Shown here: positions 1 through 24,000 of the stretch, in pieces | How positions within the stretch are numbered: position 1 is the first letter of the stretch | Layout: each line of letters begins with the position of its first letter | Made by a program: the position numbers and the translations under genes | Source: Opitutales bacterium | GTDB lineage: Bacteria > Verrucomicrobiota > Verrucomicrobiia > Opitutales > UBA953 | DNA: 24,000 bases | NCBI GenBank assembly: GCA_017935025.1 | Contig: JAGBIL010000022.1 | Span: forward strand, 5,273 to 29,272 | Reading direction: 5' to 3' | Notes under the pieces: generated by a model | Database searches by the model: none | Told to the model about the DNA's origin: nothing | Seen by the model: the letters and a program-made list of their open reading frames with translations, nothing else

Positions 1-189
1 CGCGTTAGTTCCCGCAAAGAGTTTTGTCCCATGTAGCTCCGCATCGGCGAGGTCCAAGTCTTTTTGATAATCCGGCGCTCAAGAATCTTGCCGAAAACAA
101 AAAGCGCTTCCCCAAAATTTTCCGTTTCATATCCCCGTTTTTTTTCCGGATTCCCTTTTTGGCGGGAACACGATTTGCTGAATCCGGTT

Positions 190-861
190 ATGAGCTTTTC
201 AAATATTTCTGCCGTGATTTTTGATATGGACGGCACGTTGCTGGATTCCGAACGGCTGAGCCATAAGGCTTGGGATGCCGCCGCACGGGAGATCGGCGAG
301 CGTGTTACACGGGAAATTTTTCTCAAAATGGTCGGACACCGTTCGGCGGATTGTATGCGGATTATGCAACGCGAAATCGGGCGGCCGCTTCCGGAGGAAA
401 AAATCATCGCTTCGGCGCGGGAACACTACGCGGCGTTGGTGCGTGCCGGGGTTCCGCTGATGCCGGGCGCTCGGGAAATGTTCGATTTCGCGCGGGAACG
501 CGGTTGGAAAATCGGCGTTGCGACCTCTACGCGTCGCGAAAGTGCGCAGGAAAAACTTGAGCGCGCCGGGCTGTGGGAGCGCGTCGATGTCGCGACGTGC
601 GGCGATGAAGTCTCGATCGGAAAACCCGATCCGGAAATCTATTGCGCGACGGCGGAAAAATTGGGCGTTCCCGCAGAAAATTGTCTTGCCGTGGAAGATT
701 CCCCGACGGGATTTCGAGCTGCGTTTTCCGCCGGTTGCGTCTCCGTGCTTGTTCCGGATCTGGTTGCGCCTACGCCCGAAGCGCTTCGCGACGCTGTCGG
801 AATTTTTTCCTCGTTGCTTGCTTTGCGGGAAAAACTTTGCGCGGAGTTGCCGCTCGCCTGA
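190..861 (+). CDS. HAD-superfamily hydrolase (beta-phosphoglucomutase/phosphatase-like)
   Basis: ORF 64..861; the likely start is ATG 190 (MSFSNISAVIFDMDGTLLDSE). HAD motif I (DMDGT), GKPDPEIY and EDSPTG blocks are visible in the translation. Confidence 0.85.
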   Translation: MSFSNISAVIFDMDGTLLDSERLSHKAWDAAAREIGERVTREIFLKMVGHRSADCMRIMQREIGRPLPEEKIIASAREHYAALVRAGVPLMPGAREMFDFARERGWKIGVATSTRRESAQEKLERAGLWERVDVATCGDEVSIGKPDPEIYCATAEKLGVPAENCLAVEDSPTGFRAAFSAGCVSVLVPDLVAPTPEALRDAVGIFSSLLALREKLCAELPLA

Positions 862-918
862 TTTTTTTGAAATTTGATTCTGTAAAATTTTTATTTTCGC
901 GCGTAAAATCCGTTCCCG

Positions 919-1668
919 ATGGAAGATTTGAAAAACCACTTAAAAATTGCGGAAGATGCGGCGCGCGATACGGGCGCGATCTTGCGTGCCGGCGGAAATT
1001 GCAGTGTCGCTCTCAACTCCGATACCGATGTCAAACTCGCTGCCGACGTCGATTCCGAAAAGCTCGTGCGGGAACGCCTCGGTGCGACGGGATTGCCGAT
1101 TTTCGGCGAAGAACTCGGCGGAGATCCCGCGCTTTACGATTCGCCGGGAACGCTTTATTGGGTCGTGGATCCGCTTGACGGAACGTTCAACTATCAGCGC
1201 GGGCAACCGCTGACCTGCGTCAGCATCGGGCTGATGCGCGGGAGCGAGCCTGTGCTCGGCGTGATTTATAATTTTAATGCGGATGAAATGTTTTCCGGCG
1301 TGGTCGGGACGGGGATTTTTCTGAACGGAGAAAAAATCGTTCCCGCGTGGGCGAGCGAGATTTCACAGGCGTGCCTGATGACGGGTTTCCCCGCGCTTGC
1401 GGACAAATCCCCCGAGGCTCTCGCTCCGTTTATCGCCGAAGTCGGAATGTTCAAAAAAATCCGCATGATCGGGACGGCCGCGCTCGCCATCGCCTACGTC
1501 GCTTCGGGGCGCGCCGACGTTTACAGCGAAAAGGGGACGAACCTCTGGGACGTTGCGGCGGGAATGGCGCTTGTTAAGGCTGCCGGAGGTTTTATCAAAA
1601 TTGAGCCGACCGGCAAGCGCGCGCTAAACTTCAATTTGCGTTGCGCCGCCCGCGAAGAGTGGCTTTGA
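919..1668 (+). CDS. Inositol monophosphatase family protein (SuhB/CysQ-like)
   Basis: 249-aa ORF with the WVVDPLDGTFNY metal-binding block and GTAALAIAYVASGRADVY block typical of the IMPase family. Confidence 0.85.
   Translation: MEDLKNHLKIAEDAARDTGAILRAGGNCSVALNSDTDVKLAADVDSEKLVRERLGATGLPIFGEELGGDPALYDSPGTLYWVVDPLDGTFNYQRGQPLTCVSIGLMRGSEPVLGVIYNFNADEMFSGVVGTGIFLNGEKIVPAWASEISQACLMTGFPALADKSPEALAPFIAEVGMFKKIRMIGTAALAIAYVASGRADVYSEKGTNLWDVAAGMALVKAAGGFIKIEPTGKRALNFNLRCAAREEWL
1622..1640 (+). promoter_or_regulatory. Copy of the CGCTAAAYTTCAATTTGCG element, inside the 3' end of the IMPase-family gene
   Basis: cgctaaacttcaatttgcg matches 23815-23833 at 18 of 19 positions. Its function here is unknown. 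Confidence 0.3.
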
Positions 1669-1692
1669 GAGAGAAAAAAAGCGAATTGACGT

Positions 1693-1734
1693 AAAACAAA
1701 AGAAGCGCTCCCGCGGGAACGCTTCTTTTGTTTT
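1693..1734. terminator. Bidirectional intrinsic terminator between convergent IMPase-family gene and tpiA
   Basis: aaaacaaaagaagcg-ctcccgcgggaa-cgcttcttttgtttt. The outer stem is a perfect 15 bp, the inner tcccgcggga is a palindrome, and A/T runs lie on both sides. Confidence 0.75.
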
Positions 1735-1751
1735 GTCGGTCGGAAGACCTC

Positions 1752-2528
1752 TTAGGCTTTCGCTGCTTGAGCCTTGACGCCGCTGTTGACGAGCGCGAGG
1801 AAATCGTTCGCAACGAGAGCCGCGCCGCCGATCAGGCCGCCGTCAATGTCCGGCTTGGCGAGGAGTTCGTCCGCGTTGGACGGTTTCATCGAGCCGCCGT
1901 AAAGGATGCGGATGTTTGCGGAAACGGTGCCGAGGATTTCGGTGAGCGTTTTGCGAATGAAAGCGTGAACTTCCTGCGCCTGTTCCGGTGTCGCCGTTTT
2001 GCCCGTGCCGATCGCCCAAACCGGTTCGTACGCGATAACGATGCTTTCCGCTTTGTCTGCGGGAACGTCTGCGAGACCGCCGACGAGCTGGGTTTTGATC
2101 ACTTCTTCAACCTTGCCGGCTTCGCGTTCTTCGAGCGTTTCGCCGACGCAGAGAACGGGCTTGAGGTTGCTTTCGAGGCAAGCGAGAACCTTCTTGTTGA
2201 TGAACGCGTCCGTTTCGCCGTAGTAGCTGCGGCGTTCGCTGTGTCCGAGGATGACGTAGGAAACCTGAAGGTCGCGGAGCATGGCGGCGGAGATTTCGCC
2301 CGTGTAAGCGCCGGACGCTTTGTCGCTGACGTTTTGTGCGCCGATTTTTGCCGTCGAGTTGCCGACGAGGGCGGAAACGGCGGGAATCGACGTGAATGTC
2401 GGGCACATCAGGACGTCGATGTCGTTCTGATTCGCGACGGCGTCGATGATCGGCTTTGCGAGTTCAACGGCTTCCGTAGCCGTTTTGTTCATTTTCCAGT
2501 TACCTGCAATGAGAATTTTGCGTGACAT
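1752..2528 (-). CDS. tpiA: Triosephosphate isomerase
   Basis: 258 aa; N-terminal IAGNWKMNKT and the AYEPVWAIGTGKTATPEQAQEVH active-site signature. Confidence 0.95.
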   Translation of the reverse strand: MSRKILIAGNWKMNKTATEAVELAKPIIDAVANQNDIDVLMCPTFTSIPAVSALVGNSTAKIGAQNVSDKASGAYTGEISAAMLRDLQVSYVILGHSERRSYYGETDAFINKKVLACLESNLKPVLCVGETLEEREAGKVEEVIKTQLVGGLADVPADKAESIVIAYEPVWAIGTGKTATPEQAQEVHAFIRKTLTEILGTVSANIRILYGGSMKPSNADELLAKPDIDGGLIGGAALVANDFLALVNSGVKAQAAKA

Positions 2529-2576
2529 GATTTTTAATTAAAAATGGATGATTGATAGTGGATATTTTTCAGTAAA

Positions 2577-2677
2577 TAACGAACAGTGAATAATGAATAA
2601 CGCAGTGCTTAAGGTTTTTGCTTTGGCAAAAACTTTGAACAATGAATTATTCACTATTCGTTATTCATTGTTCGTTA
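2577..2677. repeat. Nested imperfect inverted repeat (long stem-loop) in the pgk-tpiA intercistronic spacer
   Basis: The outer arms 2577-2599 (taacgaacagtgaataatgaata) and 2655-2677 pair at about 21 of 23 positions. The inner hairpin is gtttttgc-tttg-gcaaaaac at 2614-2633. No T-run follows on the transcribed (minus) strand. Confidence 0.6.
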
Positions 2678-2681
2678 AATC

Positions 2682-3926
2682 TTATTCCTTATCGAGGGCA
2701 TCGACACCCGGGAGAATTTTGCCTTCGAGGAGTTCGAGGGAAGCGCCGCCGCCCGTGGAGCAGTGCGAAACGGTTTTCGCAACGCCGAATTTCTTTGCCG
2801 CCGTTGCCGTATCACCGCCGCCGACAACCGTCGTCGCACCGTCCGCCGTCGCTTTCGCAATCGCGTCCGCCATGGCTTTCGTTCCCGCGGCAAAGCTGTC
2901 GAATTCAAAGACACCCGCCGGACCGTTCCAAACGATGGTTTTAGAAGCGAGAATGGAAGCGGTGAAGATTTCGTTGGTTTTCGGGCCGACATCGAGACCC
3001 ATCCAGCCGGCGGGAATGCCGGTTTCGTCGGTTGCCGCCTGCGTTGCCGCGTCTGCCGCGAACTTGTCGCCGCAAATGTAGTCGACCGGAAGCGTGATTT
3101 TCACGCCTTTTTCCTGCGCCTTTGCTATGAGTTCGGGAACGAGCTTTGCGCCTTCTTCGTCGAAGAGGGAGGAACCGATTTCCATGTTTTGCATGACTTT
3201 CTTGAACGTGAACGCCATGCCGCCGCCAATGATGATTTCGTTGGCTTTGTCGATAAGGTTCTTGATCAGCGGGATTTTGTCGGCGATCTTTGCTCCGCCG
3301 AGAATGGCGAGAAGCGGGCGAGCCGGATTGTCGAGCACCGCCGCAAATGCCTTGAGTTCCTTTTCCATGAGGAAGCCGGCAACCTTCGCGGGAAGATCGA
3401 CACCGACCATCGAGGAGTGCGCGCGGTGTGCCGTGCCGAACGCGTCATTCACGTAAACATCGACGTTCTTGGAAAGGCTGGCGCGGAATTCTGCAACTTT
3501 CGCGGGATCGGCTTTGATTTTGTTTCCGTCGGCATCTTTTGCCTTGCCTTCTTCTTCGATGTGGAAACGAAGGTTTTCGAGGAGGAGAATTTCGCCCGGC
3601 TTGAGATCGGCTTTCGCCTGTTCGGCGGCTTCGCCGACACAGTCTTCAACGAACTTTACCGGTTTGCCGATCTGTTTGGAAAGCTCTTCGGCGACGGGTT
3701 TGAGGGAGAACTTGGGTGTTACCTGACCGTTCGGGCGGCCGAGGTGCGAGGCGAGGACGACCGCCGCGCCGTTGTCGAGCGCGTATTGAATGGTCGGAAG
3801 CGCTGCGATGATGCGTTGCGGGTTGGTAATTGCGCCCGTTACTTTGTCTTGCGGGACATTGAAGTCAACGCGGATGAAGACGCGTTTGCCGTTAACATCG
3901 ATATCACGAATTGTTTTAGCTGCCAT
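2682..3926 (-). CDS. pgk: Phosphoglycerate kinase
   Basis: 414 aa; RVDFNVP N-terminal block, the SHLGRP region and the C-terminal VVGGGDTA motif. Confidence 0.95.
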
Positions 3927-3957
3927 AGTCTTTTAGATTTTTAAAAAGTCTTTCCAT

Positions 3958-4063
3958 TAAACGCGCGCGGGAACGGCTTTGCAAATGCAAAAAAGGCACT
4001 TAGCTTCGGCAACGTTTTAGCGTTTTAAATTTCTCTGAAACATTTGCGTTCCCGTCGCGTTTA
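3958..4063. repeat. Inverted pair of the GCGGGAACG-type motif with shared flanks, in the pgk / ECF-sigma divergent intergenic region
   Basis: Left arm taaacgcgcgcgggaacgg (3958-3976). The reverse complement of the right arm (4046-4063) is taaacgcgacgggaacgc. Matching blocks are 8+8 nt around a small bulge, about 70 nt apart. Confidence 0.5.
4036..4061 (+). promoter_or_regulatory. Candidate ECF-type promoter (TGAAAC-N16-CGTT) upstream of the ECF sigma gene
   Basis: tgaaac at 4036-4041, a 16-nt spacer, then cgtt at 4058-4061, 20 nt before ATG 4081. It resembles the generic ECF -35 AAC / -10 CGT pattern. This is a pattern match only. Confidence 0.3.
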
Positions 4064-4080
4064 TCCTCTACTATAAACTG

Positions 4081-4650
4081 ATGAGCGAAGCCCGAAGATC
4101 TCCCTGCGAGCCCGACCCTGACGCACAGCGTATGCAACGCATAGCTTCGGGGGATTTTTCGGCGATGCGGGAACTTGTCGAACGCTGGCAAAAGCCGCTG
4201 ATAAACTTCTTTTTCCGTTCGGTCAATTCCGTCCATACGGCGGAAGATTTGGCGCAGGCGACGTTTGTCAAAATTTTTCGCAATGCGGGAACATACGAGC
4301 CGAAAGCGCGCTTTTCGAGTTGGCTTTTTCTCGTTGCGCGTTCGATTCTCATCAGCAATTTCCGCAAGGAAATCGCGCGCCCCTCGACGGCGACCGATCC
4401 CGCTGATTTGCCCGCTGTGGCGGTGCCGACCGATGAGCTCGGCGTTTTCGATTTGGAGCAGGCTTTTTCCGAATCGGTAAAAACGCTTCCGGAAAACCAC
4501 CGCACGGCAATTCTGCTTTTGTGTCAACAGGAGCTTTCCTACGAGGAAATCGCCGAGACGATGGAAACAAATGTGCAAAACGTAAAAACATGGATTTTCC
4601 GCGCGCGCCGGAGCCTGCGCGAGACCCTTTCCGTTTTTCTGGAAAAATAA
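4081..4650 (+). CDS. ECF-subfamily RNA polymerase sigma-70 factor
   Basis: 189 aa. Region 2 block (AEDLAQATFVKIF...FSSWLFLVARSILISNFRK) and region 4 HTH (LSYEEIAETMETNVQNVKTWIFRARRSLRE). Confidence 0.85.
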   Translation: MSEARRSPCEPDPDAQRMQRIASGDFSAMRELVERWQKPLINFFFRSVNSVHTAEDLAQATFVKIFRNAGTYEPKARFSSWLFLVARSILISNFRKEIARPSTATDPADLPAVAVPTDELGVFDLEQAFSESVKTLPENHRTAILLLCQQELSYEEIAETMETNVQNVKTWIFRARRSLRETLSVFLEK

Positions 4651-4705
4651 ATTTTCGGTGTGCTGAAACTTTTTTGAAAATTTTTCGTTTTCCTAAACAT
4701 AAGCA

Positions 4706-5206
4706 ATGAAAAAGAATGCCACAGTCGATGCCGACAAGCGCTTGGAGATCTTGCTCGCGGGAACGCCGCTTGAACCCTCGGGCGATTTTTTGCGTCGCGT
4801 TTGTGAGGCGTGTCTGGACGAAATGATTGACGCGAAACTCGCGCAGATGCCCGTCGAGCCGCGCGCGGATTTTGCGGATCGCGTGATGGCGGAAATTTCT
4901 TCGGGAAACAATGTTGTCGCGTTCCCGCGGCGCTTTTCGGCGTTTCGCCGTGCGTTTCGCGTATCCGCCGCAGGCGTTGCCGCCGCGCTCGCCGTAACCG
5001 TCGGAATTTTCTCGCTGAAACCGCAGGCGACATCGCTCAACGAGCAGGTGGCAAGCGTAATCAGCGCCGATCCCGAGCTTGCCCGACTCGCTTTGCCGGA
5101 TGACGATTTTACGCTTAGCGAACTTGTCGCCGCGTCGGAACTTTTGACGGCGCTCAACGATAATTCCTCTCAAACCGCAGATTTTTTTGCATACTATGAA
5201 AACTAA
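4706..5206 (+). CDS. Putative single-pass anti-sigma factor
   Basis: Lies immediately downstream of the ECF sigma gene. 166 aa with one central hydrophobic helix (VSAAGVAAALAVTVGIFSL). No recognisable ZAS HxxxCxxC motif. Assignment rests on position and topology only. Confidence 0.4.
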   Translation: MKKNATVDADKRLEILLAGTPLEPSGDFLRRVCEACLDEMIDAKLAQMPVEPRADFADRVMAEISSGNNVVAFPRRFSAFRRAFRVSAAGVAAALAVTVGIFSLKPQATSLNEQVASVISADPELARLALPDDDFTLSELVAASELLTALNDNSSQTADFFAYYEN

Positions 5207-5801
5207 GATCACAGCAATACTCACGTTCTTCGCTGCGTCCGTTTTCGCTTTCGCGGAAACCGTTGCCGAAGCTCAAAAAGCACCCGAAACTGCTCCGGCT
5301 CCGCAAGTTTGTGCCGAGCAGCCCAAAAAATGCCCGAAGGCCTGCCCGCAAATTTCTCAGGAAATGCGCGAAGCGTTCGTGCAGCGCATTCTTCTTTCGC
5401 TCAGCGAAGAAGATTTGGCAAAGCTCGCCGAAAAGGTTGATGCCGTTCGCAAAATGACTCCGGAGCAGAAGGCGGAAGCGCGCAAGGCGCTCCCGAAACC
5501 GCATTTCTGCCCGGCTTCGCAGATGAAAAAATCCTGCGGCGAGCCCGGATGCAAATTCGGTCCGAAAGGTCCGAAGTGCAAGGGTCCGAAAGGCAACGAT
5601 TGCTGCGGATCGAAATGCGGAGGCAAGAAAATGGGTAAATGCCACCACGGTCGCCGCGGTCCGGGAGCGAAATTTCACGGGCATCGCGGACACGGTCCGA
5701 AAGCTCCGGGTGCGAAGCCCTGTATGTGCCCGAAAAAGGGTGCGCCGCTCCCGCCGCCGGCTTCGGACGCTCCTGCCGCAGAAGCGCCTGTCGCAGAATA
5801 A
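5196..5801 (+). CDS. Secreted protein with Cys/His/Gly/Lys/Pro-rich C-terminal half (possible periplasmic metal-binding protein)
   Basis: ATG 5196 (MKTKITAILTFFAASVFAFAE, signal-peptide-like) overlaps the upstream stop by 11 nt. The C-terminal half reads CGEPGCKFGPKGPKCKGPKGNDCCGSKCGGKKMGKCHHGRRGPGAKFHGHRGHG. Confidence 0.6.
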   Translation: MKTKITAILTFFAASVFAFAETVAEAQKAPETAPAPQVCAEQPKKCPKACPQISQEMREAFVQRILLSLSEEDLAKLAEKVDAVRKMTPEQKAEARKALPKPHFCPASQMKKSCGEPGCKFGPKGPKCKGPKGNDCCGSKCGGKKMGKCHHGRRGPGAKFHGHRGHGPKAPGAKPCMCPKKGAPLPPPASDAPAAEAPVAE

Positions 5802-5841
5802 TCGACGAGACGCCGCAAGGTCGTTTTAACGACTGTGTTAT

Positions 5842-5892
5842 CGTTCCCGTGAAAATCCTTGTTGAAAATTTTCGCGGGAACGTTTCTTTTTT
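5842..5892 (+). terminator. Intrinsic terminator built from an inverted pair of the abundant motif
   Basis: cgttcccgtgaaaat (5842-5856) pairs with attttcgcgggaacg (5868-5882) with one mismatch, followed by tttctttttt. Confidence 0.65.
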
Positions 5893-5910
5893 GAAAATTC
5901 CTCTAAAAAA

Positions 5911-6462
5911 ATGACTATGAATTTCCGAAATCTGATTCTTTCCGCTGTTTTGTCGCTCGGATTTTCCGCCTTCGTTTTTGCCGATGCGGAAAAAATGTCC
6001 GTTCCCGCAGGAGGGCCGCAGGATCGGGGACCGGAAAATACGGAGATCTCCGATGCGCCTCCGCCGCCCGCATTTTCGCGCGAGGATGCGCGTATGCTCA
6101 AACGCCTTTTCCTCATGAAAAATGAGGAGTTGCACCGCTTGGGCGAATTTATCCGCCGCTTGGAAAAAATACCTCCGGAGCGCCGCAGGCAGATGGCGGA
6201 GGATTTGGAGCGCGCCGCGTCCGTTAAAACGCCCGAGCAGCGCCGCGCGTTTGAAAAAGATATGCGGGAACGTTTCCGCCGCGAACGCTCCGATTTGCTC
6301 GCTCGATATTTTGCTGCGCTTCCGCCGGAGCAGGCGGATGCCGAACGCAAGAAATTTCTTTCGCTCGACCGGAAAGCGCGTCGCGCCTACATCGCCGACG
6401 TACGCCGCAAGCTCGGGTACGAGCCGTTCCCGCCGCCTCCGCCGAAAAAAGGTGAAAACTGA
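5911..6462 (+). CDS. Secreted helical protein with repeated x-P-P/T-E-Q/R-R motifs (DUF3106-like by eye)
   Basis: Signal-peptide-like N-terminus (MTMNFRNLILSAVLSLGFSAFVFADA). Repeated motifs KIPPERRRQM, KTPEQRRAFE and LPPEQADAERKKF. Shares the L-x-x-E-[DE]-L...K-x-[TP]-P-E motif with the preceding gene. Confidence 0.6.
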   Translation: MTMNFRNLILSAVLSLGFSAFVFADAEKMSVPAGGPQDRGPENTEISDAPPPPAFSREDARMLKRLFLMKNEELHRLGEFIRRLEKIPPERRRQMAEDLERAASVKTPEQRRAFEKDMRERFRRERSDLLARYFAALPPEQADAERKKFLSLDRKARRAYIADVRRKLGYEPFPPPPPKKGEN

Positions 6463-6485
6463 AATCCGGCGGGATTTTCTTTCGC

Positions 6486-6539
6486 CGTTCCCGCGATAGG
6501 AAAAAGGTTGAGAAGCGGCGCGGGAACGCTATGATTTTT
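6486..6539 (+). terminator. Terminator-like hairpin from an inverted pair of the abundant motif
   Basis: cgttcccgcg (6486-6495) and cgcgggaacg (6519-6528) form a 10-bp stem with a 23-nt loop. A short T-run (6535-6539) lies 6 nt downstream. The geometry is weak for a canonical terminator. Confidence 0.35.
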
Positions 6540-6543
6540 CGCC

Positions 6544-8139: not shown

Positions 8140-8374
8140 GTCGTGAAAGTTCTTTCTTTAACCGGGAAGGGACAAAAGAAAAAGAAGTTTTTATTTTGAT
8201 TTTTAAGGGAAGAATTAAAACTCCGGAGGAGCGTCACTTCGTTAACCCCATGCGAAGCGAGCAACGCGAGCGGATCTTGGGAAAAAGATTGCAGTATTAG
8301 CTTTAAGCCCTCATCTCTCATCTTTTTTTTCTTATTTCTATTTCGCGGAGGCGGAATTACAATTTCCCGCAATT

Positions 8375-9286: not shown

Positions 9287-9361
9287 GAAAAAATCCGTTT
9301 GTTCCGTTTTTTTTTTACAATAAACTTTTAACATTACACGCGCCGTAGGCGCTAAGAAAAA

Positions 9362-14225: not shown

Positions 14226-14259
14226 AACACTTTCAACTTCTCTAATCCCGAACTCAAAA

Positions 14260-14952: not shown

Positions 14953-15005
14953 ACGAAACCGACGAAAACACAGGTAAAAATTGAAATCAATCAACAATCA
15001 ATGCC

Positions 15006-15890: not shown

Positions 15891-15937
15891 TTTTTTACTT
15901 CATCAATAAATCTCTAACCACAATCAAAATAAAAATT

Positions 15938-16447: not shown

Positions 16448-16469
16448 AACTCAATAGAGATTATTTCAT

Positions 16470-16841
16470 ATGGCAAAGACATACTTTGAAACGGCAATAG
16501 ATGCCCTTCGTCAGAATGATTTTACGACAGCTTGTAGATTTTTGGGGTATGCAATCGAATACGGTAGCAATAAAGAAAAGAGGAAAGCTAGGAAAATTTT
16601 AGAAGAAACCCCGCAACTTGAAAGATACAAAGAGATTCCTCGTAAAACCAACGACACAATTGTTGATGAAATTATTACAAAAGCTACTCGTCTAGCAAAT
16701 AAAGCCGCAACCGGAGAACTAAAAAAAGAAATATCTAAAAAAGGGAAATACCTTGCTGAAGAATTTATCGACGAAGTTAAGTCAAATCCTATTGGTTGTA
16801 TAAAAATCGCATGTCGAATGTGGAAGATTTTTGGAGGTTAG
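16470..16841 (+). CDS. Small helical protein sharing the N-terminal TPR-like module of the 725-aa protein
   Basis: 123 aa. TYFETAIDALRQNDFTTACRFLGYAIEYGSNKEKRKARKILEE aligns to TYFEQALHFFEAGKLEEARKYFGYAKNFGSENEKQRATEILEQ at 17 of 43 identities by hand. Confidence 0.55.
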   Translation: MAKTYFETAIDALRQNDFTTACRFLGYAIEYGSNKEKRKARKILEETPQLERYKEIPRKTNDTIVDEIITKATRLANKAATGELKKEISKKGKYLAEEFIDEVKSNPIGCIKIACRMWKIFGG

Positions 16842-16845
16842 AAAT

Positions 16846-17637
16846 ATGGCTAAAGAAAAAGATCCGTGGCTCGACACCCTAGAAAAAAAGACTGATAAGT
16901 TGAATGCACCCATTTTGCTTGAGTTCGAAGAGTGGAATAATTCCGAGAAAGAGGCTGATGAATTAATACAAGCTGCCAATAACTTCAGTCCTGAAAGAGT
17001 CGTTAGCAAAATAGAAAAACTCTGCGAAGAAATTGCGCAGTGGTATGTTTCAGAGCACAATAAGTTAATAAAAAAAGTATGCAAAGAAACAGAAATCAAG
17101 CCAACCCCATGGCTTTCTCATGATTCTAAAGATTGGCTCTACGGTGAAGTTGTTTCAGAACTAAAAGCTCTTGAAAATGCTCTCAATCACGTAAGAAATT
17201 CAATGTGCGATATCGCCTCATTTGTGGAGAGAAATACAGGATTCTGGGCGAACGCGAAAGTATTTATTGATAGCGCAATTAAAGGAGCTATTTCTCCTTT
17301 GCGTAGTATGTACGACTACGGGAAGGATTTCTTAAGTGGATTTGAAAATCCGGAAGCCAAACGGGTTGATTCAAATTATGAGAGGTCTCTTGAAGAACTT
17401 TCCAATGCACAAGAACGTTTGTCTCAAGTAGTATATACAAAATGTATTTCTCGGTGGAACGATAAAACATTGGGAGCAATTAAAGATATTGAGAACTCCC
17501 TGCTACCCAGTAAAGTCCAACCCGCGCCATCGATTCTCAAACGCTGTTTTTGGGGAATTATTAAACTCTTACTGCTTGCTGGGCTTATCCTCGGAGGGAT
17601 GACACTTCTTGAAAAATACAAAATTATTAACTTTTAA
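16846..17637 (+). CDS. Tail-anchored helical protein
   Basis: ATG 16846 is preceded by ggagg at an 8-nt spacing and lies 4 nt after the upstream stop. The protein is predicted mostly helical, with a C-terminal TM segment CFWGIIKLLLLAGLILGGMTLL. Confidence 0.55.
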   Translation: MAKEKDPWLDTLEKKTDKLNAPILLEFEEWNNSEKEADELIQAANNFSPERVVSKIEKLCEEIAQWYVSEHNKLIKKVCKETEIKPTPWLSHDSKDWLYGEVVSELKALENALNHVRNSMCDIASFVERNTGFWANAKVFIDSAIKGAISPLRSMYDYGKDFLSGFENPEAKRVDSNYERSLEELSNAQERLSQVVYTKCISRWNDKTLGAIKDIENSLLPSKVQPAPSILKRCFWGIIKLLLLAGLILGGMTLLEKYKIINF

Positions 17638-17659
17638 AATAACGACTTACCCTAATATC

Positions 17660-19735
17660 ATGAATGGAATATTAACCGAACGGGAGAAAAATATTGTCTC
17701 TGCCACCAAAGAAGAGCTCGAAAAATGCAGGTCTATTCTTGAATCAACCCCCGAGGCAAGAAAGACGCTTGTTCCCGCTTATGAAAATGTTTTGCGGGAA
17801 CTCCGCGGATTTGATTCCGAGCTCTTCATTGTTTCTTCAATGGGAATGCTAAAATCAGGGAAATCGTCTCTGGTTAATTTGTTGGCACGTTCGGAACTTG
17901 CGTCTCCTACCGGATACGGAACGGATACAACACTTCGCCCTGCACTCATCATGCCAGCGACAGCACAAAAGCCTGAAGGGGAAATTGAGGTTTGGTTTGC
18001 AAGTAACCCAACAGAACTTTCGCTTTCCGGCGATATGTCGAAAGAAGACATCGAAGCAAAACGTAAAGAAATGCTGTCTTCTGTCTTTGATTTTGTTCGA
18101 GGCGTAGGACGTGAGCCGGAGAACGCAGTCAGAAAATCGCACAGACTAACGGAAGAAAAGCTCAAAAATATTTTATGTAAAAAACAAAGCTTAGGAAATG
18201 AGCTACCTTCCGAACCGATATTGGTTATTGTGCGTGTGCCTCGGAAAGACGGCTCCTTACTTTCTGATAAAATCGTTTTGTTGGATACACCGGGTTTAGA
18301 CTCCATGAATTCCGAGTGGACTACAAATTCCGCTTGGTATCTTTGGCTAATGGAAAAAAGCGATTTGCTTCTATTTTTACAGAGTAGCGTCGCACCATTA
18401 AATCTCTCAGCCGGAGAAATTTTGAAAGAACTCCAACGCCAAAAACGCGGACGCCCGATTTGGTTGATACAAAACCTTATGGAGGCAAAGCACTGGATGA
18501 AAAAAGATGTTCAGGAGGCAGAAAATCTATCTCAAAAGGAAAGAGCGGTTACCGAGTTTCAAAAAATTAGCACCAACACGAATAGTTATTCGGTAAATCT
18601 CGGCAAGGACTTTCCGAAGTTGTTCGAGCAAGAAAGCGATCTTGACTGCAGTGCTGATTCAGAACATCTGTTAAATGAATCCGGATTCAAAGAGCTTGAA
18701 GAAGGCATTAAAGATTCTCTCAAAAGAAATGCGACCGCTCAACGTAAAGGGAATTGTATCAGAAACGTAGAAAATGCAAAAAATGAATTTGGGAAAATGA
18801 TCAAGAGTTTTAGGGAAAATGAAGTCGGAAAAATTCGCAACGAATGTGATCAAAAGCGGAAAGTAATTGAGAACGCATTCAAGGTATTGGCGGAAAAAAT
18901 TGATCCGAACCTAACACCTGCAGGGTTGCGCGTACAACGCGTAACGGACGATCAAATTTCTTTCAAGGGGGAATCTGAATCTGAGTTTTGGGGAGGATCG
19001 TTTGACGCTTCGCTAAACAGCAAGTTTAAAAGCAACGAGAACTACAACTTAGTCTATCTTAATAATTTTAAGGATGAAAAAATTCGCGAGGCGCATGATA
19101 GGTTTCGACAATTTTTGGAAGAAACCGAATCCGATGACGTAAATTGGGAGTCGGAAGAAGGCGCAAAAATGAATCTTCGGCGCAAAGTTATAGGTCAATT
19201 CTCAAAATTTATAAAAGAAGTAATGGCAGAGACGCAGGACGCGAAGAACGTTCTGAAATGCGAAGATATTCAACACAAAGAATGTCCACAAAAAATGAAT
19301 ATCACAGAAATTCACAGTCTTTCGAAGATTGAATTTCCGGATTATGATAGCTCAGGCTTATCCGACAAAGGCTTCATCAAAAGACTTAGTAAAAAATGTT
19401 CATCTCTTTTCTGCGGAGGAAAAATTTATATCGGTGAACGTTGTCGCTCCAAAATAACAGATTACAAATACAACGAAAAGTCATTGAAAGCCACCCTTAA
19501 GTTCTTTCACGAAACGGAGCAAAAAAAAATTAAGAGTAAAATCGCAAACTGGGCAAACGAACAATTTAATGAATCGTGCCGTGATTTTTTAAAAAAACTT
19601 GAGGCGCGGAGAGAGGAATGTTTAGAGGAAATCAGGAGAAAACGGGAGAACGCAGATTCTTTGGAATCAAATCTTTTTTGTATTGAAAGTATCCTCGAAA
19701 ATGCCATGAAAAGATTTGACGGGATTAACAATTAA
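17660..19735 (+). CDS. Bacterial dynamin-like GTPase (BDLP family)
   Basis: ATG 17660 (MNGILTEREK...). G1 P-loop GMLKSGKSSLVNLL (17843-17866), G2-like GTDTT, G3 LLDTPGLDS. The following SDLLLFLQSS...IWLIQNLMEAK layout resembles BDLPs. A long helical C-terminal half follows. Confidence 0.8.
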   Translation: MNGILTEREKNIVSATKEELEKCRSILESTPEARKTLVPAYENVLRELRGFDSELFIVSSMGMLKSGKSSLVNLLARSELASPTGYGTDTTLRPALIMPATAQKPEGEIEVWFASNPTELSLSGDMSKEDIEAKRKEMLSSVFDFVRGVGREPENAVRKSHRLTEEKLKNILCKKQSLGNELPSEPILVIVRVPRKDGSLLSDKIVLLDTPGLDSMNSEWTTNSAWYLWLMEKSDLLLFLQSSVAPLNLSAGEILKELQRQKRGRPIWLIQNLMEAKHWMKKDVQEAENLSQKERAVTEFQKISTNTNSYSVNLGKDFPKLFEQESDLDCSADSEHLLNESGFKELEEGIKDSLKRNATAQRKGNCIRNVENAKNEFGKMIKSFRENEVGKIRNECDQKRKVIENAFKVLAEKIDPNLTPAGLRVQRVTDDQISFKGESESEFWGGSFDASLNSKFKSNENYNLVYLNNFKDEKIREAHDRFRQFLEETESDDVNWESEEGAKMNLRRKVIGQFSKFIKEVMAETQDAKNVLKCEDIQHKECPQKMNITEIHSLSKIEFPDYDSSGLSDKGFIKRLSKKCSSLFCGGKIYIGERCRSKITDYKYNEKSLKATLKFFHETEQKKIKSKIANWANEQFNESCRDFLKKLEARREECLEEIRRKRENADSLESNLFCIESILENAMKRFDGINN

Positions 19736-19746
19736 ACCTGTTAGTT

Positions 19747-20760
19747 ATGAAAAAACTTTTCAAGTCTCCGTGGGCTTGGTGTGTCGTTTCGGGAATCGTA
19801 CTTTTTGCTGTTTCCGGATTGCTGATGCGCGGGAACGCTTTAAACGAATGCTTTCCCGGTGGAATCGTCGGGTGGATTTTCTGGGGAATTCTTATACTAC
19901 TCGCGTTGCACTTCCTAATTCGTCCGTTTGTGGGATTTGTCGGGCTTCCTCAATGGAAATCCGAGGAAGAACAAGCGGGAATGAATGACTTTGATCGGTT
20001 ACTGTTTTTAGAAAAATATGCTAAAAGCATCTCTAAAACGCAGGCCGTCTCTTCGTTTGAAAATGCTAGTTTACTGGAAAAATTGAGGAACCTTGAAAAT
20101 GCCCTGCATGAAATGCACTCGAGTTCCCGATTAGAGCTCTTGGAGAAAAGCGTTCCCGAATTTCGGGAAGCATTACATAAAGAGGTTTGTAGTCCTATTA
20201 TTTCTGCCCACATGAAATATGCCGCAGTCGCCGTTGTTGTTTCTCAACGCGGGATTCTTGATGCTTTTGTCGTATTTGCATTGCAGGTAAAACTAATTAT
20301 CGCTCTTAGTCGAGCAATGGGACATCGCCCGTCGTGGGCGTTTGTTTCCTGTTGCATGGTCTGGGTAATAAGCAATTCACTCATTTCGTTAATCTTTGAC
20401 GAAACAAATATCACCGAAACAGCACTTTCTTCTTTAAGCGAAATTTTGAGAATCCAATCCGGCGGGCTGTTAGGTGAAATCCCCGGATTAAAAACAATCG
20501 CAAATCTTTCAATGCAAGCACTTACTGCTGCTAGTTCCGTTTACATTACGGGGGAACTCGTTCGATCCCGCTTACTCGGAAACGCAAAAAAGAAAACCAT
20601 AAAAGAGTTACTAAAAATACGTGTCGACGGCTACAACGAAGCCGGAAAAATCGCAACCAACATAATCGGCGGTTTTTTCGGAGCAAAATCTACTGAAAAT
20701 GATGATTCTGATAAAAGTGCTACAACGACTCCCATGAAATCTCCTGTTCTCCCACAATAA
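19747..20760 (+). CDS. DUF697/YcjF-like membrane protein
   Basis: 337 aa. Two N-terminal TM helices, a helical linker, then AAVAVVVSQRGILDAFVVFALQVKLIIALSRAMGHRP. By eye this resembles the YcjF core ([30 protein letters not shown]). Starts 11 nt after the dynamin-like gene. Confidence 0.5.
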   Translation: MKKLFKSPWAWCVVSGIVLFAVSGLLMRGNALNECFPGGIVGWIFWGILILLALHFLIRPFVGFVGLPQWKSEEEQAGMNDFDRLLFLEKYAKSISKTQAVSSFENASLLEKLRNLENALHEMHSSSRLELLEKSVPEFREALHKEVCSPIISAHMKYAAVAVVVSQRGILDAFVVFALQVKLIIALSRAMGHRPSWAFVSCCMVWVISNSLISLIFDETNITETALSSLSEILRIQSGGLLGEIPGLKTIANLSMQALTAASSVYITGELVRSRLLGNAKKKTIKELLKIRVDGYNEAGKIATNIIGGFFGAKSTENDDSDKSATTTPMKSPVLPQ

Positions 20761-20765
20761 ACTCC

Positions 20766-20945
20766 ATGCTTTTCGCATCTGTAATTGATTTAGTTTGTCG
20801 TGTGATTTTGGTTTTCGGGAAAGGAATAAAAGCCTTTACCGAAGGGGAATTCGGGGCATTTTTTATGGAGTGGATTGCTTTGCCGTTGATTGTTCTCTTC
20901 GTTTCAATCGTCGTTTATTGTTTCTGTCGCAATAGAAAATGGTAG
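20766..20945 (+). CDS. 59-aa putative small membrane protein (below the 60-aa ORF-track cutoff)
   Basis: ATG 20766 lies 5 nt after the upstream stop. Translation MLFASVIDLVCRVILVFGKGIKAFTEGEFGAFFMEWIALPLIVLFVSIVVYCFCRNRKW has two hydrophobic segments. TAG at 20943-20945. Confidence 0.4.
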   Translation: MLFASVIDLVCRVILVFGKGIKAFTEGEFGAFFMEWIALPLIVLFVSIVVYCFCRNRKW

Positions 20946-21115
20946 AGCTGTACTCAAAAATCTTCCGGGAATTGGAATTTGTCGGGTGCGGGAGGGCGGA
21001 GATGTATCCGGATAATTACAAAATACAGGCGGAAGATTGCCGGAAACGTTTCACGTCTGAATGATGCTGAAAATTCCAGTTTGGTGAAGATTTGAAACCG
21101 CGACTGAACACCGAT

Positions 21116-21285
21116 AAACACGAATTATTTTATTTATTTAACACAGATGTAGCAGATTCAAACAGATGAAAAAACTTTGCGATTTTGCGTGATTTACTTA
21201 CCGCAAAGGAACGAAAGCAAAAGAAGGTTTTATAAAAATATCCGGTTTCATCTGTTTAATCCGTGTTAAATAAAAATTCGTGTTC
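21116..21285. repeat. Imperfect AT-rich inverted repeat (about 40-55 nt arms, about 73-nt centre) at the right border of the island
   Basis: Left arm aaacacgaattattttatttatttaacacagatgtagcagattcaaacagatgaaa (21116-21172). The reverse complement of 21246-21285 is gaacacgaatttttatttaacacggattaaacagatgaaa. Matching blocks of 10, 12 and 12 nt are separated by indels. Confidence 0.6.
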
Positions 21286-21306
21286 ATTCGTGGTTTCTTC
21301 TCTTGG

Positions 21307-21329
21307 TTCGCGGGAAATTTCAATTTGCG
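21307..21329 (+). promoter_or_regulatory. Copy of the TTCGC..AAATTTCAATTTGCG element, 33 nt upstream of the pyrF ATG (candidate promoter/operator)
   Basis: ttcgcgggaaatttcaatttgcg. The 15-nt core aaatttcaatttgcg (21315-21329) is identical to 23819-23833 and to the reverse complement of 23703-23717. Confidence 0.35.
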
Positions 21330-21362
21330 TTTGCGTGGGGTTTTTCCGAAAATCGCGGCATT

Positions 21363-22052
21363 ATGGCTACGGAACTCATTCTTGCGGTTGACCTCGACGA
21401 CAAAGACGTTGCAAAGAGCTTTCTCGCGCCTCTGCGCGGCGAGCTTTCCTGGGTAAAACTCGGCTTGCAAATGTTTTTGAAATACGGTCCGGACATCGTC
21501 GACGAATTTGCCGATGCGGGCTTCAAGATTTTTCTCGATTTGAAGCTGCACGATATTCCGAATACCGTTGCGTCCGCGATTAAAAGCCTGCGCGGTCGTC
21601 CTTGCGGAATGCTTACTATTCATACGCTCGGCGGTGCGGAAATGATGAGCCGCGCGCTCGATGCCGCCGCAGACGCGCTGCCGCAGACGCGCTTGCTCGG
21701 CGTGACGGTGCTGACGTCGATGAACGATGCGCAACTCGCCGGAATCGGCGTGCCGCGCGCACCGATGGCGCAGGTTGAAGTTTTGGCAAAACTCGCCGCC
21801 GGCGCGGGAATGCGCGGGCTTGTTTGCTCGCCGCTTGAGTTGCCGTGTCTGCGCGGTTTTCTCGGGGAGAAAATTGCGTTGGTGACGCCGGGAATCCGCC
21901 CGAAAACGGCGTCGCTCGACGACCAGAGTCGCGTGATGACTCCGGCGGATGCTGCTACTGCGGGGGCGAGCTACATCGTAGTCGGCAGACCGATTCTCAA
22001 GGCGGACGATCCCGTCGCCGCCACGCGGGCAATTCAGCAGGAATTGGCGTAG
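21363..22052 (+). CDS. pyrF: Orotidine 5'-phosphate decarboxylase
   Basis: ATG 21363 (MATELILAVDLDD...). The DLKLHDIPNTV block and the C-terminal IVVGRPI block are present. Confidence 0.9.
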   Translation: MATELILAVDLDDKDVAKSFLAPLRGELSWVKLGLQMFLKYGPDIVDEFADAGFKIFLDLKLHDIPNTVASAIKSLRGRPCGMLTIHTLGGAEMMSRALDAAADALPQTRLLGVTVLTSMNDAQLAGIGVPRAPMAQVEVLAKLAAGAGMRGLVCSPLELPCLRGFLGEKIALVTPGIRPKTASLDDQSRVMTPADAATAGASYIVVGRPILKADDPVAATRAIQQELA

Positions 22053-22072
22053 GTCGAAGAATTAGAAATGAG

Positions 22073-22112
22073 AAATTAGGAATGAGGAAGCCTTCCTAAT
22101 TCCTAATTTTTT
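22073..22112. terminator. Intrinsic terminator between convergent pyrF and dus
   Basis: aaattaggaat (22073-22083) pairs with attcctaattt (22099-22109). Four further inner base pairs form (aggа-type: 22085-22088 with 22094-22097). A T-run extends to 22112. Confidence 0.55.
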
Positions 22113-22125
22113 CATTCCCTCATCC

Positions 22126-23202
22126 TCACTCGCAATTCGGGCGGGCGCAAAGAGCAGGGAAGGGCTCCGGCGGGAACGGCGTTTCGGCAAGCGTTCCCGC
22201 GAGGAGGAATTTTTCCGAAATTTTAAAAATTTCCGTCGGCGATTCCGCACGGCGAACGGCGTGTAAAAATGCGCCCTCGGCATCGACGCCGGTCCCGATA
22301 AAGTTCAGAAATTTTTTCATTCGCGCGGCAACGCGGGCGGCGGAAACGGTTTCGTCCGAAACACAGGTTTCCAGCTCGCGAATGTAGTCGAAAACGTCGC
22401 CGAGTTTCGGCGCAAAAATTTCGTGTTCCGGCGTTCCCGCGAACATTTCGCGAAGTTGCCGGAAAATCCACGGATTGCGCACCGCGTGGCGTCCGCACAT
22501 GAGCCCGGCGCAACGCGTCTGCGCGAGGACCTTGCGCGCTTTTTCAACGGAGGAAATTTCGCCGTTGGCGGCAACGGGGCAGGCGGATTTTTTCACGGCA
22601 TCGGCAATGGCGGCGTAATCGACGGGAGAACGGTAAAGCCCGCGCACCGTGCGCCCGTGAACGGCGAGCAGATCGGCCCGGTTTTCGCGGATAATTTCGA
22701 GAAGGCGCGGGAACGGCGTCGCGTCATCAAATCCGAGGCGGCATTTTACGGTAAAAAGTTTTCCGTGGTCGGAGCAGATTTTGCGCAAGGCGGAGAGAAT
22801 TTCTTCGACTTTCGGGAGGTCACGCAAAAGACCGCCGCCGACGTTTTTCCGGAAAATTTTCGGCATCGGGCACCCGAGGTTGATGTCGATTCCGGCGACG
22901 CTTTCCGCGTAGCGCGTGAGCACGGCATCGGCGATGCGGACGAGCGCGGGAACGTCTTCTCCGATGAGTTGCACGAGCAACGGCGCTCCCGTCGCGGCGA
23001 GCGTTTTTTCGGCGCACTCGGCGACGGAATCGTCAATCTGCGAGGTGGCGTTAACGCGGAGAAATTCCGTGACGAAAAGGTCCGGCGCGCCGCGTCTTGC
23101 CAAAAGTTGCATAAACGGAAACGTCGTGATGTCCTGCATCGGCGCAAGCATCGTAAATCCTTCGCGCGGGAACGCGAAACCGCTCGGCGTTTTCTCGCTC
23201 AT
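22126..23202 (-). CDS. tRNA-dihydrouridine synthase (Dus family)
   Basis: 358 aa. LAPMQDITTFPFM, the GIDINLGCPMPKIFRKNVGGGLL catalytic-Cys block and VHGRT are typical of the Dus family. Confidence 0.85.
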   Translation of the reverse strand: MSEKTPSGFAFPREGFTMLAPMQDITTFPFMQLLARRGAPDLFVTEFLRVNATSQIDDSVAECAEKTLAATGAPLLVQLIGEDVPALVRIADAVLTRYAESVAGIDINLGCPMPKIFRKNVGGGLLRDLPKVEEILSALRKICSDHGKLFTVKCRLGFDDATPFPRLLEIIRENRADLLAVHGRTVRGLYRSPVDYAAIADAVKKSACPVAANGEISSVEKARKVLAQTRCAGLMCGRHAVRNPWIFRQLREMFAGTPEHEIFAPKLGDVFDYIRELETCVSDETVSAARVAARMKKFLNFIGTGVDAEGAFLHAVRRAESPTEIFKISEKFLLAGTLAETPFPPEPFPALCARPNCE

Positions 23203-23213
23203 TTTTCAAGGTT

Positions 23214-23669
23214 TCAGGAGAAAACGCTCGGATCGCGGCGGCGGAATTTTTCCAAAAGCTCCGAGGCATCTTTGCATTTTTGAAGGAGATTTCGGGAAAC
23301 GAGCACGGGCGCGTGGCAGGAAAATGCGAGTGCGAGCGCATCGGACGGTCGGGCATCGAGCTCGACGAATTTTTCGCCGAGTTCATTTTTCATATCGAGA
23401 GAAATTGCGGAGAAATAAACGCCGTCCTTGACATCGGTGAGCGCGACACCGGCAACTCGCGCGCCGAGCGCTTTGCATATGTCCGCGAGCAGTTCGTGGG
23501 TTTGCGGGCGGTCGGCGCGCTTGCCGGTTTCCGCCCGTTGCAGGCGTTCCCCCGTACCGACTTCCGTTTGCATAACAAAGGTTTTCTGCGGGCAAACGAC
23601 GAAAATTGCCGTGCTGTCCGCCAAGTCAAAAAAGTGAAATCCTTTGGGTTTTATCCAATCTGCATTCAT
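23214..23669 (-). CDS. Bifunctional nuclease family protein (BFN/DUF151)
   Basis: Likely start ATG at 23669 (MNADWIKPKGFHFF...). Blocks RPQTHELLADICKALGARV, DGVYFSAISL and LDARPSDALALA are present. The ORF-track extension to 23780 runs through the conserved intergenic element. Confidence 0.75.
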   Translation of the reverse strand: MNADWIKPKGFHFFDLADSTAIFVVCPQKTFVMQTEVGTGERLQRAETGKRADRPQTHELLADICKALGARVAGVALTDVKDGVYFSAISLDMKNELGEKFVELDARPSDALALAFSCHAPVLVSRNLLQKCKDASELLEKFRRRDPSVFS

Positions 23670-23702
23670 TCTTCCGGTAATCTTAAAAGCTCGTTTCCCG
23701 GG

Positions 23703-23725
23703 CGCAAATTGAAATTTAGCGAAGC
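23703..23725 (-). promoter_or_regulatory. Copy of the element (minus orientation), 33 nt upstream of the nuclease ATG
   Basis: cgcaaattgaaatttagcgaagc is the perfect 23-nt reverse complement of 23811-23833. Confidence 0.35.
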
Positions 23726-23810
23726 ATAATGTGAGGAATGGGAAGAAAGAGAAGAATGTGTGTTTTCCCGTTTCTCTCATTCATCTCATTATTCTCATTA
23801 TTCATCTGAC

Positions 23811-23833
23811 GCTTCGCTAAATTTCAATTTGCG
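23811..23833 (+). promoter_or_regulatory. Copy of the element (plus orientation), 64 nt upstream of the next plus-strand gene
   Basis: gcttcgctaaatttcaatttgcg faces the 23898 gene, while its inverted partner faces the divergent nuclease gene. Confidence 0.35.
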
Positions 23834-23897
23834 GGAGCGGGAGGCGAGCGGTATGCTTTGTTGAAGTTTTAACTGACAAAATTTTTTTTGTAAATTT

Positions 23898-24000
23898 ATG
23901 GAAAAAAGAACGCTTATCATCGGTGCGGGCGGGGTCGGCAACGTCGTCGCTCACAAAGTAGCTCAAAATGCGGCGGAGTTCGGCGAAATCATGCTCGCTT
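23898..24000 (+). CDS. Saccharopine dehydrogenase / carboxynorspermidine dehydrogenase-family protein (5' fragment, runs off the window)
   Basis: MEKRTLIIGAGGVGNVVAHKVAQNAAEFGEIMLA is a Rossmann GxGxxG N-terminus typical of this family. Only 34 codons are visible. Confidence 0.5.
   Translation, partial: MEKRTLIIGAGGVGNVVAHKVAQNAAEFGEIMLA

Follow-up and report, generated by a model that had tools for sequence, protein, structure and literature searches.

A lineage-specific, hyper-abundant short DNA word in Candidatus Spyradosoma and its close relatives, possibly an uptake sequence

The question raised by this locus is why a single short DNA word should occur dozens of times within 24,000 nt, on both strands and both inside and between genes. 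The stretch concerned (hereafter the window, i.e. the whole 24,000-nt stretch of DNA that was analysed) belongs to contig JAGBIL010000022.1 of an Opitutales bacterium, and identical DNA is present on ENA contig ERZ28654807 scaffold_257 (143 kb). It holds 49 exact copies of GCGGGAAC/GTTCCCGC, 32 on the forward and 17 on the reverse strand, compared to a mean of 1.52 and a maximum of 5 in 100 dinucleotide-preserving shuffles of the window, and in a k-mer census this word and its overlaps top every length from 7 to 12. A preliminary description of the window had counted about 49 octamers by hand (about 32 and 17 on the two strands), as well as about 68 GGGAAC/GTTCCC hexamers, against roughly 1 octamer expected from base composition; the octamer count proved to be exact, and the hexamers number 67-68.

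In the window these hexamers are preceded by C in 93% of the cases and followed by G in 78%, in agreement with the earlier remark that the next base is usually G; across sequences the preceding C is found in 93-99%, and in the relatives discussed below the following G in 93-97%. Alignment of the GGGAAC hexamers yields the consensus c-G-C-G-G-G-A-A-C-G-c. The real unit is thus a core, CGGGAAC(G), with softer flanks (c-G-core-G-c), 11 bp in all. The core CGGGAAC has 63 copies in the window (38 forward, 25 reverse), mostly with G as the next base, and GCGGGAACG has 38; core density is 3.66/kb at positions 1-11200, 1.63/kb at 11201-21000 and 2.0/kb at 21001-24000. Outside the 11-bp footprint, the positions between -35 and +35 each contribute 0.04 bit of information at most (272 pooled copies).

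The excess persists under more demanding null models. Markov models of order 1 and order 3 predict ~2 and ~4.5 copies in the window, versus 49 of CGGGAACG, and over eight sequences the excess is 20 to 30-fold at order 1 and 5 to 11-fold at order 3. Even at order 5, where the model already includes the motif's own hexamers, no simulation exceeds the observed count in any of the eight sequences; the maximum falls short of it in seven and ties with it in L260. The profile is also sharply peaked, since pooled clade DNA contains 273 perfect copies compared to at most 54 of any single one-off variant, the one-off excess lying chiefly in transition variants. After masking of the core, no second skewed word stands out in the clade sequences.

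Whether the word is favoured as DNA, or merely as the coding of some recurrent peptide, can be judged from its placement relative to genes. In ~60 kb with gene calls, 146 of 179 cores are coding (82%) and 33 are intergenic, with densities of 2.87/kb in coding versus 3.70/kb in intergenic DNA. Within called genes, 84 cores are in sense and 62 in antisense orientation (p = 0.08), and cores occur in each of the six frames (sense phase 0/1/2 = 22/43/19; antisense phase 0/1/2 = 37/10/15). Synonymous-codon shuffling, which retains each protein sequence and its codon pool, predicts 6.2 ± 2.5 cores in the GC-normal genes of the window, where 37 are observed, and 2.0 in the low-GC genes, where 16 are observed, i.e. 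an excess of 6 to 8-fold. The codon-shuffle and Markov counts that the preliminary description had called for are therefore far from expectation, and its argument for selection or drive at the level of DNA rather than of a peptide is borne out by the six frames, by this excess and by the motif-specific conservation between species that is described below. Its five examples of differently framed copies (at 493, 7087, 667, 4921 and 7762) all hold, as does its observation of intergenic copies, ten of the 63 window cores being situated between genes.

Orientation offers little in the way of a rule. Forward and reverse cores number 38:25 in the window (GC skew +0.05), 26:42 in L002 (+0.06), 36:46 in L007 (-0.05) and 28:28 in L009, so that per locus (21 to 38 kb) at most ~60-66% of the copies share a strand. 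The 32:17 imbalance of the window does not look like a skew of the replication type, the sense:antisense ratio being ~58:42 over 60 kb and the sign being reversed relative to GC skew in L002. Spacing is near random, if a little more regular in L002, L007 and L008 (coefficient of variation 0.80-0.84).

The same word turns up well beyond the window. Among the comparison loci, collected as matches by PGK, only those with a PGK at least 96% identical carry the motif, and all clade members are metagenome-assembled genomes (MAGs) or metagenome contigs. Three species representatives in GTDB have a PGK 96-99% identical to that of the window, namely 'Verrucomicrobia bacterium SIG76' (L007), 'Opitutales bacterium RGIG6493' from sheep rectum (L008) and 'Candidatus Spyradosoma sp.' (L009), Ca. 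Spyradosoma being placed by the NCBI taxonomy in the Opitutia, Verrucomicrobiota. No 8-mer is more frequent than the motif in L001, L002, L005, L007, L008 and L009 (GC 50-65%), and the same holds for several metagenome contigs. Four of these (L002, L007, L008 and L009; GC 52-65%) carry 2.6-3.9 cores/kb, while having only PGK-TIM in common with the window and ~19 kb of other genes each. On the source contig itself, the 14 kb past the right end of the window contain ~3.8 CGGGAACG/kb, and the extended stretch of 38 kb holds 107 cores. When metagenomes were scanned for paired motifs, most matches were due to chance, but six further contigs proved to be motif-dense (L231, L260, L244, L258, L281 and L286), L231 having the highest density (4.4/kb, GC 62%). 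These contigs encode ordinary housekeeping proteins, and annotation of L007 and L009 likewise gave housekeeping genes only; across the clade, densities range from 2.5 to 4.4 per kb. For the regions sampled, a genome-wide signal is thus supported, as had been proposed, with the same density outside the window, in unrelated neighbourhoods of three to four species and on further metagenome contigs, and the comparison with related genomes that had been suggested finds the motif as top 8-mer there rather than confined to the window. It moreover recurs across independent assemblies from ENA, Logan, NCBI and JGI.

Beyond this clade the abundance ends abruptly. None of 77 loci from other Verrucomicrobiota and a few outgroups has it, and the next relative (L010, PGK 79% identical) has no copies. 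Pooled, CGGGAACG occurs at 2.54/kb in 107.5 kb of clade DNA versus 0.068/kb in 733 kb of GC-matched relatives, a 37-fold difference. Viral contigs were also scanned for paired motifs, and among the matches listed there were chance occurrences and one tandem repeat, none of them comparably dense. The tandem repeat, at 3288-3630 of an IMGVR_UViG viral contig (L177), consists of nine CGTTCCCG spaced by multiples of 18 bp and is unrelated to the dispersed motif. Within the clade, the flanks vary by species: in a comparison of the extended source stretch (ext), L002, L007, L008, L009, L231, L258 and L281, the 3' G is present in 62% (L002) to 94-100% (elsewhere) of the copies and the 5' G in 25-77%. 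The flank difference between the source genome and L007 lends weak support to this variation (p about 0.03).

Among the comparison loci, one observation concerns labelling. L076 (CAVKGV010000001.1) is labelled Alistipes onderdonkii and has a PGK 73% identical to the query, and its k-mer style (TGCGGAAA, AAATTTTC) is that of L047, labelled Fibrobacter sp.; L076 is probably mis-binned or mislabelled.

How well individual copies are preserved can be seen in L007 and L008, whose synteny extends over 21 kb with an identity of 92.9%. Of the perfect CGGGAACG copies in L008, 64 out of 65 are intact in L007 (98.5%), and in the reverse direction 64 out of 77 (83%), compared to 59% for any 8-bp window (p = 1e-13 and 7e-6), 64-66% for one-off variants and 55-57% for flanking 8-mers. 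The turnover that does occur is one-sided, with 12 to 13 perfect copies private to L007 versus 1 to L008 (p = 0.003), and seven one-off sites of L008 are perfect in L007 with none in the reverse direction, the differences being mainly G/A and C/T. Either L007 has been gaining copies or L008 has been losing them, which this pair, lacking an outgroup, does not distinguish. Six species share the PGK codons that make up the motif, GCG-GGA-ACG (Ala-Gly-Thr) and GTT-CCC-GA (Val-Pro-Glu), with variation at adjacent synonymous sites, and in L009 an Ile-to-Val change makes a new copy. Taken together, the abundance is extreme, exact and restricted to one lineage, it is independent of frame, gene orientation and base composition, and it comes with motif-specific conservation and without consistent polarity.

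The 414-aa PGK itself (window 2682-3926) is identical in L002, L003, L004 and L006, where the neighbourhoods are wholly different and nucleotide identity is only 91-93%. The clade has therefore undergone extensive rearrangement around a PGK that is under very strong purifying selection.

What, then, could the word be for? The reading that we favour, though only tentatively, is that c-G-CGGGAAC-G-c is a lineage-specific uptake sequence of an uncultured gut Opitutia clade (Ca. Spyradosoma and close relatives), similar to the DNA uptake sequences (DUS) of Neisseriaceae and the uptake signal sequences (USS) of Pasteurellaceae, and that biased uptake together with recombination has spread it. A DNA receptor on the cell surface, belonging to a competence machinery, would bind double-stranded DNA on which the motif is present, whichever its orientation, and motif-bearing DNA of the same or a sister species would preferentially be imported and then recombined into the chromosome. 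Every round would favour motif-bearing alleles (a 'molecular drive'), copies would accumulate where the protein sequence permits, and decayed copies would be repaired. The receptor as reader of the motif and recombination as the spreading force are what we infer from this pattern. An uptake sequence is ranked first because the anatomy of the motif resembles two known phenomena, namely the uptake sequences of Neisseriaceae and Pasteurellaceae and the cyanobacterial word HIP1, itself now proposed to promote transformation.

Several features speak for an uptake sequence: the abundance over all null models, the action at the level of DNA, the lineage restriction, the preservation of copies, the sharply peaked profile and the compactness of a word without extended flanks, as well as the flank differences between species, the lack of consistent polarity relative to GC skew, the slightly even spacing in three loci and the presence of ComM/YifB. 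As with uptake sequences, the motif is a short exact word at 20 to 37 times the level expected from composition or found in relatives, shared by a clade, absent from its relatives and varying in its flanks. The ComM/YifB (Mg-chelatase-like) homologues are located a few kb from PGK, at 16175-17710 in L001 and at 1311-2882 in L007. In some bacteria ComM serves as a helicase in transformation; as members of the family are found widely, these genes are weak evidence and do not attest competence.

Other observations weigh against an uptake sequence. In uptake sequences, about half of the copies and most of the inverted pairs are located in transcription terminators, and this concentration is lacking here, with 82% of the copies coding and 27 inverted pairs of at most 50 bp observed versus 29 expected by random placement. 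The window has three such pairs (6487/6521, 17771/17795 and 22171/22193), which are no evidence for terminators because the pooled pair count matches random placement; a terminator or hairpin role was rejected on that count and on the position of two of the three within coding sequence. The density of 2.5-4.4/kb is several times that of the uptake sequences of H. influenzae or Neisseria, which is about 1/kb. The lower density in the low-GC part of the window had been considered as a sign of slow accumulation in acquired DNA, which was rejected as the excess over the codon-aware expectation is equal or higher there. Conservation and abundance fit any selected genome-wide recognition site equally well, and with all clade genomes being MAGs the case for uptake is one made from sequence. 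Finally, no type IV pilus, ComEA, ComEC or DprA gene turned up in the ~150 kb of annotated clade DNA (~5% of a genome, with no aimed search), in which ComM/YifB and RecQ are the sole plausibly related genes. From so small a sample, this says little about competence.

Of the rival explanations, the one that survives best, fairly unlikely as we consider it, is a hyper-abundant recognition word of the HIP1 type, i.e. a motif that is read in place by a chromosomal protein binding or modifying DNA (e.g. an orphan methyltransferase, or a factor of repair, recombination or the nucleoid), with selection keeping the copies and no role in uptake. The density of up to 4.4/kb is within the range of HIP1 rather than that of DUS and USS, the copies are spread fairly evenly through coding DNA and an association with terminators is absent, all of which would suit such a word. 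Abundance and above-background conservation are, moreover, arguments used for selection on HIP1 (PMC5861425). However, the motif is non-palindromic (GTTCCCG versus CGGGAAC), so that it cannot form a symmetric methylation site like that of HIP1, and no methyltransferase or other candidate reader turned up in the sampled clade DNA. As HIP1 is now proposed to act in transformation (10.64898/2026.06.24.733823), this explanation may in the end reduce to that of an uptake sequence.

An unlikely variant is that the motif is an asymmetric, non-polar 'self' word that would be read within the cell by a repair, recombination, modification or defence system instead of serving as an uptake tag, with selection keeping one copy per 250-400 bp throughout the clade. 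The core contains GAAC/GTTC, the classical site of Dnd phosphorothioation, and the window encodes an SspH-like ATPase domain; no dnd or ssp modification genes turned up. We know of no Dnd-type system that enriches its sites, and the link was treated as a coincidence.

It is rather improbable that the word merely results from mutation or repair that depends on sequence context, for instance from very-short-patch repair directed at the motif or from biased gene conversion, by which it would be made and restored without any function. Both the asymmetry between L007 and L008 (in private copies, in one-off sites and in the predominance of G/A and C/T differences) and the concentration of the one-off excess in transition variants are as such a process would have it, but the same asymmetries are predicted by drive through uptake. 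To our knowledge, repair biases alter oligonucleotide frequencies only modestly, and not 37-fold for an exact 8-mer. That the motif persists in genomes of 50-65% GC, and that masking it leaves no second skewed word, also argues against this explanation.

A polar signal for chromosome maintenance, be it Chi (as read by RecBCD or AddAB) or a KOPS/SRS-type sequence that orients FtsK, is highly improbable. A G-rich over-represented 8-mer that in the window points 32:17 towards the strand of positive GC skew would fit, but the ~58:42 overall orientation (84:62, with p = 0.08), the 26:42 ratio against the skew in L002 and the even split in L009 do not, and 8-mer Chi or KOPS sequences are about ten times rarer. 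The preliminary description had already set the motif apart from Chi and KOPS by its density, to which the inconsistent polarity can now be added, and we regard a signal of this type as argued against.

Least of all, and deserving next to no credence, could there be no DNA signal at all: GGAAC resembles the -35 boxes of extracytoplasmic function (ECF) sigma factors and an ECF sigma gene lies at 4081-4650, but peptide repeats and codon usage are excluded by the six frames, both orientations and the 6 to 8-fold excess after synonymous shuffling, mobile elements (REP or MITE) and promoter boxes by copies that are 82% coding, lie inside genes in both orientations and have at most 0.04 bit of information outside 11 bp (so that both a -10 partner 16 to 17 nt downstream and the body of an element are lacking) and by the lack of an Rfam match, and assembly artefacts by the four independent sources of assemblies.

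The copies are distributed over the genes of the window as follows. No tRNAs or Rfam families were found in the window, which falls into three segments. The first (1..11200, GC 54.7%) has the high density of 3.66/kb with 41 cores, and carries housekeeping genes (HAD hydrolase, inositol monophosphatase, TIM, PGK, ECF sigma factor, BrkB, PanE and FolP); the housekeeping genes at 1-11.2 kb and 21-24 kb also include OMP decarboxylase and Dus. Starting from the left, cores are found between genes at 8..14 (-) and 163..169 (+), and in the HAD hydrolase gene in sense at 418..424 (+; CGG-GAA-C, Arg-Glu) and 493..499 (+; Arg-Glu-Arg) and in antisense at 667..673 (-; GTT-CCC-G, Val-Pro). After an intergenic copy without the 5' G (TCGGGAACG) at 912..918 (-), inositol monophosphatase has sense copies at 1069..1075 (+) and 1145..1151 (+; without the 5' G, CCGGGAACG) and an antisense copy at 1339..1345 (-), followed by an intergenic core at 1714..1720 (+) and an antisense one in TIM at 2060..2066 (+). 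The two copies in PGK are those kept in six related PGK genes, one in sense at 2881..2887 (-; GCG-GGA-ACG, Ala-Gly-Thr, with the same codons in all six) and one in antisense, without the 5' G, at 3134..3140 (+; Val-Pro-Glu). Two more are intergenic, at 3968..3974 (+) and, without the 5' G, at 4048..4054 (-).

The ECF sigma factor gene (4081-4650) contains two sense copies, at 4168..4174 (+) and 4286..4292 (+). It is followed, up to 6462, by three co-oriented hypothetical genes (166, 201 and 183 aa) without a Pfam match, which may be an anti-sigma module. The gene for 166 aa has a sense core at 4758..4764 (+) and an antisense core at 4921..4927 (-; G-TTC-CCG, Phe-Pro), and that for 183 aa has antisense cores at 6001..6007 (-) and 6426..6432 (-) and a sense core at 6265..6271 (+). 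Intergenic copies are located at 5843..5849 (-; without the 5' G) and 5875..5881 (+), and at 6487..6493 (-) and 6521..6527 (+), which are the left and right arms of an inverted pair. In the gene for the BrkB-family membrane protein, sense copies are found at 7088..7094 (+; Ala-Gly-Thr) and 7307..7313 (+; without the 5' G), and antisense copies at 6711..6717 (-), 7763..7769 (-; T-GTT-CCC-GC, read as Cys-Ser-Arg) and 7816..7822 (-; without the 5' G). PanE has two in sense (8486..8492 and 8649..8655, both +) and one in antisense (9057..9063, -), FolP one in sense (9518..9524, +) and two in antisense (9776..9782 and 9938..9944, both -), and a hypothetical gene for 117 aa one in antisense (10592..10598, -) and two in sense (10645..10651 and 10816..10822, both +). 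The last copy of this segment, in sense and without the 5' G, is in a hypothetical gene for 68 aa at 11071..11077 (+).

The second segment (11201..21000) has a low GC content (43.0%), nine co-oriented genes and 16 cores (1.63/kb, still 8x the synonymous-shuffle expectation). The block of genes itself spans 11253-20760 (~43% GC), and three other samples (L088-L090) contain it in intact form. Its products comprise a 725-aa Sel1/Zn-ribbon protein, an LRAT/NlpC-like protein, an M48 peptidase with Zn-ribbon, further Zn-ribbon proteins, a 253-aa FtsK-like ATPase with a PADLOC match to the C-terminal part of SspH and mad8, a 691-aa dynamin-like GTPase that weakly matches LeoBC and a hypothetical 337-aa protein; the block looks like an acquired, possibly defence-related island. 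The Sel1/Zn-ribbon gene, 2.2 kb long, has a sole copy, in sense, at 11392..11398 (+). The FtsK-like ATPase gene has five in sense, at 13513..13519 and 14077..14083 (both + and without the 5' G) and at 13629..13635, 13852..13858 and 14133..14139 (all +), and one in antisense at 13488..13494 (-; without the 5' G). Further sense copies are those of the LRAT-like gene at 14522..14528 (+) and 14655..14661 (+; C-GGG-AAC, Gly-Asn) and of a Zn-ribbon gene at 16365..16371 (+), and the M48 peptidase gene has an antisense copy without the 5' G at 15222..15228 (-). In the dynamin-like GTPase gene, an antisense core at 17771..17777 (-) and a sense core at 17795..17801 (+) form an inverted pair, and the gene for the 337-aa protein has a sense core at 19830..19836 (+) and two antisense cores without the 5' G at 20123..20129 and 20152..20158 (both -).

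The third segment (21001..24000) is again GC-normal and has six cores, all within Dus, with ~3.8/kb just past the window end. Two of them, at 22171..22177 (+, antisense) and 22193..22199 (-, sense), are an inverted pair inside the coding sequence; another sense core is at 22433..22439 (-), and antisense cores are at 22708..22714, 22947..22953 and 23167..23173 (all +).

Sequence-specific DNA uptake is documented in two proteobacterial families only, with cyanobacterial HIP1 as a recent candidate, and according to a 2025 survey uptake-enhancing sequences are still a property of those two families. If the motif is indeed an uptake sequence, independent of these and even denser, this would suggest that self-preferring transformation has a wider distribution than thought, and the clade would provide a fresh test of drive versus selection in the origin of such motifs, having no terminator role, hosts of 50-65% GC and sister species that differ in gain or loss. 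If it is not for uptake, an unexplained genome-wide signal takes up about 2-3% of the DNA, and if it is a 'self' word read inside the cell, it would represent a class of genome-wide signal without a characterised counterpart. In practice, the k-mer is a marker that finds contigs of the clade in metagenomes and flags foreign DNA in them, and, should an isolate become available, the motif could be used to improve vectors for transformation.

No published description of the motif emerged from full-text searches of the literature that covered its strings, Spyradosoma and uptake sequences in Verrucomicrobia. Its relation to the known systems is one of partial likeness. With Chi and KOPS/AIMS it shares being a G-rich, over-represented octamer, but those are strongly co-oriented with replication and ~ten times rarer. 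HIP1 (GCGATCGC) is likewise a hyper-abundant 8-mer, with up to more than one copy per gene and conservation beyond background between genomes, and its function, long unclear, is now suspected to be an aid to transformation (10.64898/2026.06.24.733823); HIP1 is, however, a palindrome recognised by two methylases, whereas the clade motif is asymmetric, with no methylase known for it. The USS of Pasteurellaceae (9-mer core with AT-rich flanks) resembles the motif in being mostly coding with permissive frames, with perfect copies outnumbering each one-off variant, sites conserved between related species and slightly even spacing. It differs in having an extended consensus of roughly 29 bp with phased AT tracts, where the clade motif has nothing outside 11 bp, and in its pairing at terminators. 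From the DUS of Neisseriaceae, a 10-12-mer read by the minor pilin ComP, the clade motif differs in sequence and in phylum, in density (2.5-4.4/kb versus roughly 1/kb) and in being without an excess of inverted pairs or an association with terminators. Yet the two are alike in being compact and non-palindromic without extended flanks, in occurring on both strands and in several frames of genes, and in being restricted to one lineage at far above the compositional expectation, and the flank differences between species of the clade recall the dialects of the DUS.

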